DNA of 16,053 bases from a virus, in the UHGV virus genome UHGV-0060588; one strand, given 5' to 3'. Each line of letters opens with the position of its first letter. Within the stretch, counting starts at the first letter, position 1. The notes beneath the pieces were generated by a model. The model had not been told where the DNA came from and did no database searches. It saw nothing but the letters and a program-made list of their open reading frames with translations. This document shows, in pieces, positions 8,496 through 13,698 of the stretch. The translations under genes and the position numbers were made by a program.

Positions 8496-8517
8496 CTAGT
8501 CATTACGGAAAATAGAT

Positions 8518-8551
8518 AAAAAAAAAATCCCGGCTGGGTCAGGGCCGGGAT
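8518..8551 (-). terminator. strong rho-independent terminator (8-bp stem ATCCCGGC/GCCGGGAT followed by U10 on the minus strand)
   Basis: Perfect GC-rich hairpin and a run of 10 A on the plus strand (T on minus), about 65 nt downstream of the endolysin stop. Confidence 0.8.
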
Positions 8552-8615: not shown

Positions 8616-9101
8616 TCAACCTTTCACCGCGCGCCCGATAGCCTCCGCCTCCTGCCACGGCTTACCGTCGAACAGCGCAAGACGCCCGGCGGTACGGCGA
8701 CGCAGACCGAGTAATGGTTTGCCGTTCTGGTTGATGAACAGCGCCAGCTTAGCCCGCAGTGTCGCAATATCACCAGAACGCAGAGCCTTACCGGTTCCGG
8801 TAGTAGCCGCAATCACACCGGCACCCGCGTTATAGACCAGGTCACACACAGCGTCGAACTGCGCCTGTGTCAGGGAGTGGTGTGCTGCCGCATCAACCGC
8901 AGCTACGGCCTTAGCCATATCGCGATTCAGTAACAGGAGGCCTTGGCCAGGGGTGATGGTCTTACCTTCATACACATGAGGGCCATAGCTTCCGTAGCCT
9001 ATGGTTAAGTATTTTTCCGAAGGTGTCGCGCGGTAGGCGGTCCCGCGGAAATCTTCCCAAGCCGCAGTAAACTTGAGGCCGTTGTCACTCATCGAGCGCA
9101 T
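8616..9101 (-). CDS. endolysin, phage lysozyme (T4/lambda-type glycoside hydrolase family 24), 161 aa
   Basis: Lysozyme signature FTAAWEDFRGTAYRATPSEKYLTIGYGSYGP (catalytic Glu/Asp/Thr context). GGAG SD 8 nt before ATG 9101, which overlaps the HNH gene end. Confidence 0.85.
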   Translation of the reverse strand: MRSMSDNGLKFTAAWEDFRGTAYRATPSEKYLTIGYGSYGPHVYEGKTITPGQGLLLLNRDMAKAVAAVDAAAHHSLTQAQFDAVCDLVYNAGAGVIAATTGTGKALRSGDIATLRAKLALFINQNGKPLLGLRRRTAGRLALFDGKPWQEAEAIGRAVKG

Positions 9102-9604
9102 AAAGAGAACTCCTTGTGGTATTTATCTCGGGCTTCGCTAGCTACTAACTCAGCGAACTCAAGGTCATCGAAGTAACCGAAAAACTTGCGCACACCTTTT
9201 TGCAAACGGATTCTCACCATCCATTTCCCTTGCTGTCTATGGACGCCTGATACTCCGCTGGTGTTGTTGCGCGATAACCCACGGTTGCGGTTGTTGTCCT
9301 GCGAGTCACATTCTCTCAGGTTACAAAACCTATTATCGTCTCTTACCCCGTTCCTGTGGTCTATCTGCCCGCTGGGCCACTCTCCTGTTATATAGAACCA
9401 TGCAAGCCTGTGTTGCCGTAGGTATTTACCTTTGAGCATGATTACTTTATACCCGTCCGGGTCTCTCCCGTCTGGCACAGTCCCTTTAGGGGCTTTTGAA
9501 CTAACCGTCTTAAGCCACGTGAATAACCCCGTGTCAGGGTTGTAATCTAAAACGCTACGAACATAGTCACGGCTAAGTTCATTATCTGAAATGTTTCGAG
9601 ACAC
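9089..9604 (-). CDS. HNH-AP2 homing endonuclease, about 171 aa from GTG 9604
   Basis: HNH motif QHRLAWFYITGEWPSGQIDHRNGVRDDNRFCNLRECDSQDNNRNRG and AP2-type C-terminus GVSGVHRQQGKWMVRIRLQKGVRKFFGYFDDLEFAEL. GTG 9604 has a GGAGGA SD 7 nt upstream; the track start at ATG 9655 has none and would overlap the upstream gene by 70 nt. Confidence 0.8.
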   Translation of the reverse strand: MSRNISDNELSRDYVRSVLDYNPDTGLFTWLKTVSSKAPKGTVPDGRDPDGYKVIMLKGKYLRQHRLAWFYITGEWPSGQIDHRNGVRDDNRFCNLRECDSQDNNRNRGLSRNNTSGVSGVHRQQGKWMVRIRLQKGVRKFFGYFDDLEFAELVASEARDKYHKEFSLCAR

Positions 9605-9854
9605 GCTTATGTCCTCCGTATGACAGCCACGCCTGTCGAATCTGACGCAGCGCAACTAATGTGATTAATGTCTCAGGCAACGTGGGCGACATGCTGCCCT
9701 GTAACAGGTGAATGCCCCCGGCAGCGCAGACAATAGCGGTCAGGATATAGAGCACCCGACCAAATAGCCCGTCGTCAACGCTGGGGTGATACACATTAAA
9801 CAGCGATGTGCCTCCGATTGCCAGCATACCGCCGAACCAGAATAACTCATTCAT
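9582..9854 (-). CDS. small membrane protein with two predicted transmembrane segments (holin/antiholin-like), 90 aa from ATG 9854
   Basis: Internal ATG 9854 has a GGAGG SD and overlaps the holin stop (ATGA); the track ORF 9582..9935 begins earlier, inside the holin gene. Two hydrophobic stretches (LFWFGGMLAIGGTSLF and VLYILTAIVCAAGGIHLL). Confidence 0.55.
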   Translation of the reverse strand: MNELFWFGGMLAIGGTSLFNVYHPSVDDGLFGRVLYILTAIVCAAGGIHLLQGSMSPTLPETLITLVALRQIRQAWLSYGGHKRVSKHFR

Positions 9855-10155
9855 CCGGGCCTCCTCGACGTGCGATGTATTCTCCGGCGACGATGCCAGA
9901 AAGGCGGGAATAGATAGGCATCCAGAGAATGGCAATGATGAATCCGAGGCCAGCTATCTCGCTCTCGCCGGTAATGCCGAACCATTGAGCCGCGAGAGGT
10001 GCGCCAAATACGGCGCAAGTGAAGCCGGTAGCGATAAAGCAGAAGCCATCGATGGGGCCAGAAATAACGGACTTATGTTGCCTTAGTCCGATTACCCCTC
10101 CGGCTAGCGCGGCAGCGAGAAGCCAGCCTGTCACTGTTTCAGTAAATTTATCCAA
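9847..10155 (-). CDS. putative holin, 102 aa, three hydrophobic segments, TTG start
   Basis: Hydrophobic segments WLLAAALAGGVIGL, FCFIATGFTCAVFGAPLAA and IAGLGFIIAILWMPIY. First gene of the lysis cassette; GGAGGA SD 6 nt before TTG 10155. Confidence 0.6.
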   Translation of the reverse strand: MDKFTETVTGWLLAAALAGGVIGLRQHKSVISGPIDGFCFIATGFTCAVFGAPLAAQWFGITGESEIAGLGFIIAILWMPIYSRLSGIVAGEYIARRGGPDE

Positions 10156-10160
10156 GATGA

Positions 10161-10200
10161 ATCCTCCAGGTGCGTATTAAGTATGCAGTAACTGGAGGAT
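10161..10200 (-). promoter_or_regulatory. RNA hairpin (9-bp perfect stem ATCCTCCAG/CTGGAGGAT) that sequesters the holin Shine-Dalgarno
   Basis: Plus 10161-10169 and 10192-10200 are exact reverse complements. In the minus-strand mRNA the 3' arm contains the GGAGGA SD 6 nt before the holin start. Confidence 0.45.
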
Positions 10201-10230
10201 ACCACGGGTAGGAATTATCTTAATAACGGT

Positions 10231-10524
10231 TTATTTGTGTCTCCAGATGTATTGTCGTCTCTGTGGCTTCGTCGGAATATCATCGTACCCCAGCGATTTC
10301 CAGTAATTAAATAACCTATTTGCGATTGCTGCGCGTTCCTGTGTTTTAAACTCACCCAGGTTAACGGCCTTCCCGTTCTGGAACCCGCAGGCGCGGACTG
10401 CTTTGCGTCTGGCTTGAATCTCAGGGTACAGCGCGTTACGGCGGCGCTTGTATATTCGGGTGTTCGTTCTCGGTGACAGCGGCGCAAGGCCGCTTCGTTT
10501 CAGGATGTCAGTTGCAAGGCTCAT
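10231..10524 (-). CDS. small basic protein with AP2-like DNA-binding segment, 97 aa from ATG 10524
   Basis: ATG 10524 overlaps the upstream stop (ATGA); the track ORF extends to 10569. Arg/Lys-rich, with GFQNGKAVNLGEFKTQERAAIANRLF resembling the AP2 GK...LG.F.T.E.A..A pattern. Confidence 0.5.
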   Translation of the reverse strand: MSLATDILKRSGLAPLSPRTNTRIYKRRRNALYPEIQARRKAVRACGFQNGKAVNLGEFKTQERAAIANRLFNYWKSLGYDDIPTKPQRRQYIWRHK

Positions 10525-10715
10525 ATTCCGAGAATCTCGCGGGCCATTTCTTCTGTAACTTTCGAACAAGGTTCGTACATTACCTGTTCAGCGAATTCAC
10601 GTAACTTTGCTTCCAGTTTAAGATAAGCGTCGTATTCTACATAATCGCCGTATGCGTACTCAGCCATCTCAGGCTCTGGCAGGCCCCACGCTTTTACCTC
10701 ATACCTCTGTACCAT
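10521..10715 (-). CDS. hypothetical protein, 64 aa, paralog B of a tandem pair (begins MVQRY)
   Basis: ATG 10715 overlaps the stop of paralog A (TGATG). Shares the N-terminus MVQRY and a central Y-V-E-Y-D...L-K-L-E-A motif with the upstream gene. Confidence 0.5.
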   Translation of the reverse strand: MVQRYEVKAWGLPEPEMAEYAYGDYVEYDAYLKLEAKLREFAEQVMYEPCSKVTEEMAREILGI

Positions 10716-13274: not shown

Positions 13275-13299
13275 TCATCTGTCTCGTTTCGATAAGTGA

Positions 13300-13328
13300 A
13301 TAGTATCCTATTATGTTGGGGTGTGCAA
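13300..13328 (-). promoter_or_regulatory. sigma70-type promoter P3 (TTGCAC-N17-TACTAT)
   Basis: Minus-strand -35 TTGCAC (plus 13323-13328), 17-nt spacer, -10 TACTAT (plus 13300-13305). Near-identical core to P1 and P2. Confidence 0.55.
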
Positions 13329-13400
13329 GAAAATAGTTACGTTGCCGTTGTGATTCTTCAGGTAGGGTTGTGCCTTTATTCTTATTACTTGGTAACTAAA

Positions 13401-13421
13401 GGGCAGGCCCTAAGCCTGCCC
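13401..13421. other. GC-rich hairpin GGGCAGGC-CCTAA-GCCTGCCC in the divergent intergenic region
   Basis: 8-bp perfect stem with 5-nt loop and A/T-rich flanks on both sides; lies upstream of P3, so it is not an obvious terminator of any annotated gene. Confidence 0.35.
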
Positions 13422-13575
13422 ACTAATCGTTACATTTTTACGGTTGCGAATCTACGGCACATTAAGAAAATCAGATACTTAAGAGATATGCTGCCGATGA
13501 GAATAGAGCTTGCCCAGGGCAACCGGAGATACTAAGGAAGGAAAGTTACAATAATTCTAATGTTCAGTAAGCCTG

Positions 13576-13609
13576 TGTTTAACCCTTTGCTTGACGCACG
13601 GGTTAAACA
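13576..13609. promoter_or_regulatory. 10-bp perfect inverted repeat TGTTTAACCC-N14-GGGTTAAACA (candidate operator)
   Basis: Exact reverse-complement arms at 13576-13585 and 13600-13609 with TTGACG in the spacer, in the 450-bp divergent intergenic region upstream of the plus-strand HTH gene. Confidence 0.4.
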
Positions 13610-13698
13610 TTCTTACAAGGTGAACAAGAATAAAAGTAACTAAGATATAGAAGCACCTTAAACGAAGATTTCCATAATGTCAATAGGTGCGATTATGT

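Follow-up and report, generated by a model that had tools for sequence, protein, structure and literature searches.

A conserved hairpin buries the holin Shine-Dalgarno sequence of a Kagunavirus-type phage: a candidate RNA lock at the head of the lysis cassette

The UHGV virus genome UHGV-0060588, analysed as a stretch of 16,053 nucleotides (hereafter the window), is, judged by its sequence, that of a Kagunavirus-type siphophage (Guernseyvirinae). Directly in front of the first holin gene of its lysis cassette (holin 1), the minus strand carries a perfect 9-bp hairpin whose 3' arm contains the Shine-Dalgarno (SD) sequence of that gene. This structure is stable, exceeds in strength the predicted pairing between the SD and the ribosome, and is conserved among related phages. 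Translational restraint of holin 1 is thus a very plausible reading of the leader, and the hairpin would probably silence holin translation on transcripts that read through from upstream. As a tentative interpretation, which we prefer to the alternatives weighed below, the hairpin may act in cis as an RNA lock that heads the lysis cassette, of the type known from gene e of phage T4, with a promoter embedded in its 5' arm. The elements of the hairpin and of the gene that follows it are these:

10156-10230, minus strand: intergenic leader of 75 nt
10192-10200, minus strand: 5' arm of the hairpin, ATCCTCCAG, a cis anti-SD sequence, read directly and verified by script
10170-10191, minus strand: loop of 22 nt, in which folding allows a weak inner helix of 3 bp
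10161-10169, minus strand: 3' arm of the hairpin, CTGGAGGAT, which contains the SD, read directly and verified by script
10162-10167, minus strand: SD sequence GGAGGA, with a 6-nt spacer to the start codon, annotated as ribosome-binding site (RBS) in phage Schulenburg
10153-10155, minus strand: TTG start codon of holin 1, the first possible start of the open reading frame (ORF) 9847-10155
9847-10155, minus strand: holin 1 gene, 102 aa, with three hydrophobic segments and a charged C-terminus (PHROG 2359 'holin'; hydropathy profile)

The two arms, ATCCTCCAG and CTGGAGGAT, are exact reverse complements and form a perfect 9-bp stem. An original prediction, made from the letters of the window, had described here a 9-bp perfect inverted repeat with a 22-nt loop and had placed the GGAGGA SD inside the 3' arm of a stable stem. 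The repeat lies where it had been described, and the SD (10167-10162) falls within the 3' arm (10169-10161) of a hairpin of -14.2 kcal/mol. A repeat scan with a 6-nt seed over 10050-10300 listed only a 7-nt pair, and the 9-bp repeat at 10161-10200 was confirmed by script.

The energy of the hairpin alone, -14.2 kcal/mol, compares with -9.3 kcal/mol for the predicted duplex between the SD and the 3' end of 16S rRNA. The probability that the SD is unpaired is about 0 in any transcript with both arms. In an RNA that begins at 10189, and therefore lacks the 5' arm, the first G has a value of 0.03 and the remaining five positions lie at 0.32-0.83. In a 76-nt context the fold reaches -19.6 kcal/mol (z = -2.95), a value matched by 1 of 200 shuffled sequences, and in a 57-nt context z is -2.4. 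Opening the SD region would cost 14.3 kcal/mol, the second highest value among 39 putative starts in the window, where starts with a recognisable SD mostly require 1.6-8.5 kcal/mol. Perfect 9-bp inverted repeats with a loop of up to 30 nt occur eight times in the window, against 1.8 expected by chance. A 9-bp inverted repeat is by itself unremarkable; its position over the strongest SD and its pattern of conservation exceed chance.

The start codon of holin 1 had likewise been proposed to be TTG, and several lines of evidence agree with this: it is the first possible start of the ORF, and the annotation of relatives, the PHROG profile and the alignment with Dhillonvirus place the start at the same codon. 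Holin 1 matches PHROG 2359 'holin' over residues 1-95 (E=1e-28), the profile being aligned from residue 1, and relatives annotate the gene as a 309-nt CDS with the identical start. Furthermore, the Dhillonvirus holin (49% identity) begins with ATG GAT AAG where the window has TTG GAT AAA, an alignment that supports the TTG codon. The TTG is invariant in 93 related sequences, including a lineage (L044) whose holin is only 68% identical. The start is annotated inconsistently in some records: in Salmonella phage TU03 (L134) an internal start gives a 90-aa product (514-786), and in EcoPhCCP1 (L135) an upstream ATG gives a 143-aa ORF that runs through the hairpin (348-779). Since the TTG/ATG position is conserved, both are probably mis-calls. 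No leader ORF or translational coupling that might open the stem was found: the frame that continues beyond the upstream stop lacks a canonical start, and this stop codon lies 30 nt from the 5' arm, so that no terminating ribosome reaches the arm.

Conservation was assessed on 93 homologous leaders taken from phage records, IMG/VR and metagenomes, 15 of which are distinct over the hairpin. Across these 15 sequences 99.3% of the cells of the 9-bp helix are paired, and seven of the nine pairs never vary. One of the other two changes from C-G to U.G in a single sequence (a C to U change in the 5' arm of L044), and the other from A-U to G.U in four sequences (A to G in the 5' arm) and to an A.C mismatch in the metagenomic sequence L089 (T to C in the 3' arm); apart from L089 the 3' arm is invariant. 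Variation affects 13 of the 30 flanking positions on the 5' side, 8 of the 22 loop positions and 1 position among the 9 of the 5' arm. Several lineages have strengthened the stem. A U to G change creates an adjoining pair in L028 and L135, and independently of it in the Salmonella-phage lineage (L032, L133 and L134) C to A and C to U changes add pairs, giving a stem of 13-14 bp and -20 to -22 kcal/mol. In L044 the loop has been swapped for an unrelated and shorter sequence while the arms still pair (ATCCTCTGG/CTGGAGGAT, with two wobbles) in a stem extended to 12 pairs. The spacing between the arms also differs by lineage (22, about 12, 9 and 6-7 nt). The stem extensions, the loop swap with pairing kept and the varying spacing indicate, at the level of comparative sequence, that the hairpin structure itself is under selection.

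Other RNA structures were considered for the same region. The sequence UAUUAAG (10225-10219) could pair with CUUAAUA in the loop (10181-10175), as a pseudoknot or an alternative fold, but this was rejected: L032 looked compensatory (TATTAGG/CCTAATA), yet L028 is mismatched and L044, which retains the upstream element, has no loop partner. A scan against Rfam 15 up to E=10 gave nothing on the relevant strand, its only matches being at chance level on the plus strand at 9929-10018. The perfect 9-bp stem, with six G-C pairs, is unlike the mismatch-rich stems of RNA thermometers.

Holin 1 belongs to a small family, for which a full HMMER search gave 13 representative clusters; among its members are Dhillonvirus (45-50% identity), KW1E_UTAR and the Klebsiella KLB phages (about 36%), Serratia phage Scapp and others. 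In Dhillonvirus the sequence AGTCCCAGTGAG-CTAAAA-CTTACTGGGACT-TTTTT stands immediately before the ATG start and forms a 12-bp stem followed by U5-6. This hairpin, of -19 to -21 kcal/mol (z = -5.9), is terminator-like; the sole SD-like sequence lies in its 3' arm, and variation across 14 loci is confined to the loop. KW1E_UTAR and KLB16 carry TCCCCGGA-loop-TTCGGGGA, an 8-bp stem followed by U7-8 and ATG. The loop measures 6-7 nt in both Dhillonvirus and KW1E. In L044 the hairpin, with the tail TTATTTTG, is called terminator-like by the scan. All these hairpins share with that of the window their position relative to the start codon, the SD in the 3' arm and a -10-like element that abuts or overlaps the 5' arm. 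They differ from it in having loops of 6-9 nt and U5-U8 tails, and thus the features of intrinsic terminators, whereas the window has a 22-nt loop and a broken U-tract. A literature search found no experimental study of the Dhillonvirus, KW1E or L044 holin hairpins.

The hairpin of the window is clearly not an intrinsic terminator. Its loop of 22 nt, or 11 nt if the inner helix forms, is longer than the 3-8 nt typical of terminators, and its tail, UUCAUCUU, has an interrupted U-tract with 5 U in 8 nt. A terminator scan of the window did not report the hairpin at 10161-10200, and its terminator score, an approximate measure, is d = -42 to -55 (tail score 1.5-2.3); on this scale Gluttony reaches +19 and the terminator at 8551-8517 reaches +42. 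Between Kagunavirus and Dhillonvirus, MAFFT aligns CGTG-N-TAT, CTGG and the start codon. A cross-genus RNAalifold run returned 0 pairs, MAFFT setting the Dhillonvirus arms one register off. For this reason the apparent compensatory differences between the genera (ATCCT/AGGAT versus AGTC/GACT, outside a shared CCAG/CTGG core) rest on a hand alignment and carry little weight.

Burial of the SD in a stem is not a property of the whole family. At 33-39% identity, the relatives L111-L132 carry a hairpin that is terminator-like, and their SD lies free downstream of it. In Scapp (L141, about 180-300) the holin starts with TTG, and its SD, GGGG, is enclosed in a 6-bp hairpin whose loop measures 19 nt. 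Some 60 nt upstream of the SD hairpin stands a TACTAT -10-like hexamer, followed after 4 nt by an annotated terminator hairpin. This putative promoter and terminator pair repeats, at a separate site, the layout of a promoter overlapping a terminator.

Two promoter-like sites on the minus strand bear on the transcripts that would reach holin 1:

10196-10204, minus strand: TGgTATCCT, a candidate extended -10 element that shares positions with the 5' arm; transcription is predicted to start near 10189, inside the loop
12073-12101, minus strand: nearest strong canonical promoter-like site upstream of the holin, TTGCAC-17-TACTAT (motif scan)

The MAFFT alignment shows no variation among Kagunavirus, L044 and Dhillonvirus in the sequence C-TG-N-TAT, which sits at the foot of the 5' arm, while the flanks of this sequence vary; the Dhillonvirus counterpart of TGgTATCCT is TGaTATAGT. 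The positions at which the hexamers depart from consensus, CC in the window and AG in Dhillonvirus, are exactly those that pair with the 3' arm. The pattern TG.TAT..T has only two matches on the whole minus strand of the window. It recalls galP1 (TGcTATGGT), an extended -10 promoter that has been studied in detail and shares the TAT--T pattern. In KW1E the scan reports TTGACC-17-TACTAT ending at 376 with the hairpin starting at 377, and KLB16 is the same. The distance from the -10-like hexamer to the end of the 5' arm is 4-9 nt in every lineage (window and Gluttony counted by hand), so that a start about 7 nt downstream would remove all or nearly all of the 5' arm. A literature search for descriptions of a promoter within a terminator stem yielded nothing helpful. 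Another promoter-like site, GAGACA-18-GATAAT at 10243-10214, was judged unlikely: its -35 is lost in relatives that carry an inserted HslV-like gene (described below), and its -10 reads GATAAA in L019 and GATACC in L044.

As for the site at 12101-12073, its position makes the lysis cassette look like the tail of a longer operon, and it is the likely source of read-through transcripts into the holin leader. Between it and the holin, the terminator scan reports only a weak terminator-like site (10868-10856). The TTGCAC motif recurs at 13300-13328 on the minus strand in the form CTTGCAC-N17-TACTATTCA. For phage fBC-Eco01 a 'phage promoter' motif 'tgAATAGTa' has been reported with PHIRE (PMC9825357), and the -10 part of the repeated window motif is the reverse complement of this sequence. 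The repeated CTTGCAC-N17 motif looks like an ordinary sigma70-type promoter.

These elements suggest the following mechanism. In a transcript with both arms, the CCUCC-containing 5' arm would pair with the holin SD and block binding of the 30S subunit. Read-through from the upstream operon, starting at the promoter-like site 12101-12073, would carry both arms and so be silent for holin 1. The holin would be made mainly from transcripts without the 5' arm, whose likeliest source is the putative extended -10 promoter at 10204-10196; with a start near 10189, inside the loop, the SD would be largely free, and the TTG would still moderate output. In related phages the hairpin with its U-tract would insulate the holin both transcriptionally and translationally, as read-through would also be terminated, and the phage of the window would keep only the translational half of this function. 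Holin 2 and the endolysin, with SDs of their own outside the hairpin, would escape the lock.

Seen across lineages, the same material permits a broader and still more tentative proposal, which is possible but open to doubt. A compact three-in-one element, in which a -10 sequence, a terminator-type hairpin and the SD overlap within about 50 nt, would precede one holin family, so that holin synthesis would be set by the origin of the transcript: RNA reading through from upstream would be terminated, silent in translation or both, and translation would be confined to RNA begun within the hairpin. It would occur in Kagunavirus and relatives labelled Jerseyvirus, in L044, in Dhillonvirus and in KW1E/KLB, the terminator half having decayed in Kagunavirus.

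Several observations weigh against a lock with an embedded promoter. The hexamer TATCCT matches the -10 consensus at four of six positions, and the -35 region is weak and poorly conserved. Once complementarity of the arm to GGAGGAT is taken into account, TG-N-T is all that remains as extra information, which in a single genome has a chance of about 1 in 64. PHIRE and host-promoter predictions for phage fBC-Eco01 put no promoter at the holin leader, and a literature search found no transcript maps for Kagunavirus or Guernseyvirinae. No compensatory double changes occur in the 9-bp helix among the 15 distinct sequences, and a covariation shuffle control was not significant, 96 of 500 shuffles reaching the observed score; the support for the helix is therefore one of conservation, not covariation. 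Finally, the Scapp hairpin would be present on all transcripts and appears to fit better with a constant reduction of translation.

Such a constant throttle is the simplest of the rival explanations. All holin mRNA would carry the hairpin, and breathing of the stem or standby binding of the 30S subunit, together with the weak TTG, would give the low, steady synthesis that sets the lysis time. The sequestered SD and the invariant TTG agree with it, as do the weakness of TATCCT as a -10, the distance of 1.9 kb to the nearest canonical phage promoter with no strong terminator between, and Scapp, which combines a weaker SD hairpin and TTG with no adjoining -10-like element. In phage lambda, moreover, the efficiency of holin translation sets lysis time (bioRxiv 10.1101/2025.05.14.654169). 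The difficulty lies in the strength of the stem, which surpasses that of SD:anti-SD pairing and which sister lineages have been selected to make stronger still (-20 to -22 kcal/mol). By the thermodynamic rule attributed to de Smit and van Duin, a stem of this kind would reportedly cut initiation by many orders of magnitude. Because the stem (-14.2 kcal/mol here, -20 to -22 in the Salmonella-phage lineage) is stronger than the SD:anti-SD duplex (-9.3), an essential holin needs a bypass. A constant throttle also leaves unexplained the invariant TG-N-TAT and the terminator-plus-promoter layout of Dhillonvirus and KW1E; the terminator-like homologues and the -10-like element at the 5' arm would fit better with a transcript-specific lock. 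We regard a constant throttle as reasonable, though somewhat unlikely. The original prediction had proposed, as a plausible mechanism, that SD sequestration combined with a weak start codon keeps holin translation low and sets lysis timing. Its premises are borne out by the buried SD and the invariant TTG, but the stem resembles an off-switch more than a tuning knob.

The bypass might also be supplied in trans, a closed hairpin being opened late by a Com-like phage protein, by a small RNA acting on the 5' arm or by a nuclease cut in the loop. An essential gene behind a very stable lock, the many small genes of unknown function upstream and a loop that is fairly well conserved within Kagunavirus would suit such regulated opening. 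The loop, however, is unrelated and shorter in L044 and measures 6-7 nt in Dhillonvirus and KW1E, which leaves the lineages no shared recognition site; with no Rfam match and no candidate factor identified, this explanation appears improbable. More improbable still is a mainly transcriptional role, with burial of the SD incidental, in which the hairpin would be a weak or decayed terminator or the 5' stabilising stem-loop of an mRNA started at GAGACA-18-GATAAT. The Dhillonvirus, KW1E/KLB and L044 hairpins do have the features of terminators, the tail in the window has 5 U in 8 nt, and the scan finds the promoter-like site at 10243-10214; yet the 22-nt loop, the broken U-tract (UUCAUCUU) and a strongly negative terminator score speak against termination, and the GATAAT site is not conserved. 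Least probable of all is that the arms form a DNA operator, a palindrome for a dimeric regulator, or a chance repeat. They are a perfect inverted repeat, and about 1.8 such repeats are expected in the window by chance, but arm spacing that varies by lineage is ill-suited to a fixed protein footprint, the changes in the arms are wobble-compatible, which is relevant to RNA and not to DNA, and the conservation pattern excludes a chance repeat.

The preferred reading, a transcript-specific lock, has an established precedent in gene e of phage T4, whose early, long transcripts are translationally silent through an RBS hairpin and whose late promoters lie in the 5' strand of that hairpin; the same logic has been proposed for the relatives soc, 49 and I-TevI (PMC3014915). 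The window resembles it in having a lysis gene behind upstream transcription, an SD in a leader hairpin and a promoter, here a candidate, in the DNA of the 5' strand. In T4 the promoters are gp55-dependent late promoters (TATAAATA) and the gene encodes an endolysin, whereas here the candidate is a sigma70-type extended -10 and the gene a holin. Unlike T4, moreover, this is a siphophage without a known sigma factor of its own, and we infer its promoter and transcript ends. Lambda S provides a second parallel: a stem-loop upstream of the start (sdi, nt -21 to -7) involves a GGGGG SD, and the rate of holin translation sets lysis time (bioRxiv 10.1101/2025.05.14.654169). In lambda this stem-loop by the holin start gates ribosome access to a G-rich SD, as the hairpin of the window would do. 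The lambda structure, though, splits initiation between Met1 antiholin and Met3 holin, whereas the window holin has a single TTG. Its N-terminus, M-D-K-F-T-E-T-V, contains no second Met, and the next in-frame start-like codon, GTG at codon 8, has no SD. Also unlike lambda, the candidate partner of the window holin is a separate downstream gene. Hairpins over the initiation region likewise silence a late or lethal gene until opened in Mu mom and in the MS2 lysis gene, the former being opened by the Com protein and the latter by upstream translation termination. In contrast to these systems, neither an opening factor nor a coupled ORF can be discerned here, and 30 nt separate the upstream stop from the arm.

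Holin supply sets the moment of lysis, and hence burst size and fitness, and both Kagunaviruses and Dhillonviruses are common candidates for coliphage therapy; a literature search on their lysis control found only genome-description papers. If the lock with its embedded promoter acts in vivo as proposed, it would explain how premature lysis is avoided although the lysis genes lie last in an operon that looks early, would offer an engineering handle on any resulting effect on lysis timing (through mutations of the arms, the -10 or the TTG) and would represent a reusable, very compact insulator part. The three-in-one element, if real, would correspond to the T4 gene e switch but depend on sigma70, and would act on the lysis clock. 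Should only the constant throttle hold, the hairpin would be a further example of the principle established for lambda S. Translational locks on lysis genes are already known, for example in phage T4, and the kagunaviral hairpin adds to that class; the apparent overlap of promoter, hairpin and SD before one holin family is moderately interesting.

In a nucleotide search, 121 phage records match the region 9500-10700 at 85-95% identity, Escherichia phages being in the majority, and an IMG/VR contig (L004) has a leader identical to that of the window. The surrounding genes and signals are as follows:

16038 down to 10231, minus strand: string of small genes of unknown function
9582-9854, minus strand: holin 2 (holin-like) gene (PHROG 2508 'holin', E=4e-32)
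9089-9655, minus strand: inserted HNH endonuclease ORF (HNH_3, PHROG 99)
8616-9101, minus strand: endolysin (phage lysozyme), final gene of the lysis cassette (Pfam PF00959, E=5.5e-24; PHROG endolysin families)
8517-8551, minus strand: strong intrinsic terminator 3' of the endolysin, at the end of the transcription unit (d=+41.6, the best terminator score among the compared hairpins)

The ATG of holin 2 overlaps the end of holin 1, and its own SD, GAGGAGG, lies outside the hairpin. The HNH ORF sits between holin 2 and the endolysin and overlaps the end of holin 2. It is absent from most relatives, in which holin 2 directly overlaps the endolysin, and present in a few, such as DUEC01 and SHAK7858. 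Beyond the terminator at 8551-8517 come a promoter-like site and then the terminase, portal and head genes. In about a third of the relatives (including L008, L010, L015, L020, L022-L024, L036 and L037) a further gene, some 420 bp long and labelled in annotations as an HslV-family peptidase or ATP-dependent protease, separates the 97-aa upstream gene from the holin leader, at the equivalent of about 10231 in the window. The junction of this insert coincides with the first position of the 75-nt leader, and the leader remains next to the holin whichever upstream neighbour is present.

Two further inverted repeats were observed in the window. A 10-bp perfect repeat, CCCCATGAAG/CTTCATGGGG, forms a second start-region hairpin at 1929-1975 on the minus strand, at the start of the gene 1343-1963. 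Its 5' arm lies over an SD-like GAAGG just before the ATG at 1963 and its 3' arm is coding, at +26 to +35; the SD opening energy here, 16.6 kcal/mol, is the maximum of the window. The other, a 10-bp perfect repeat with a 14-nt loop (GTTTAACCC.../...GGGTTAAAC, 13576-13609), lies in the longest non-coding part of the window, an intergenic region of 418 nt (13275-13692).

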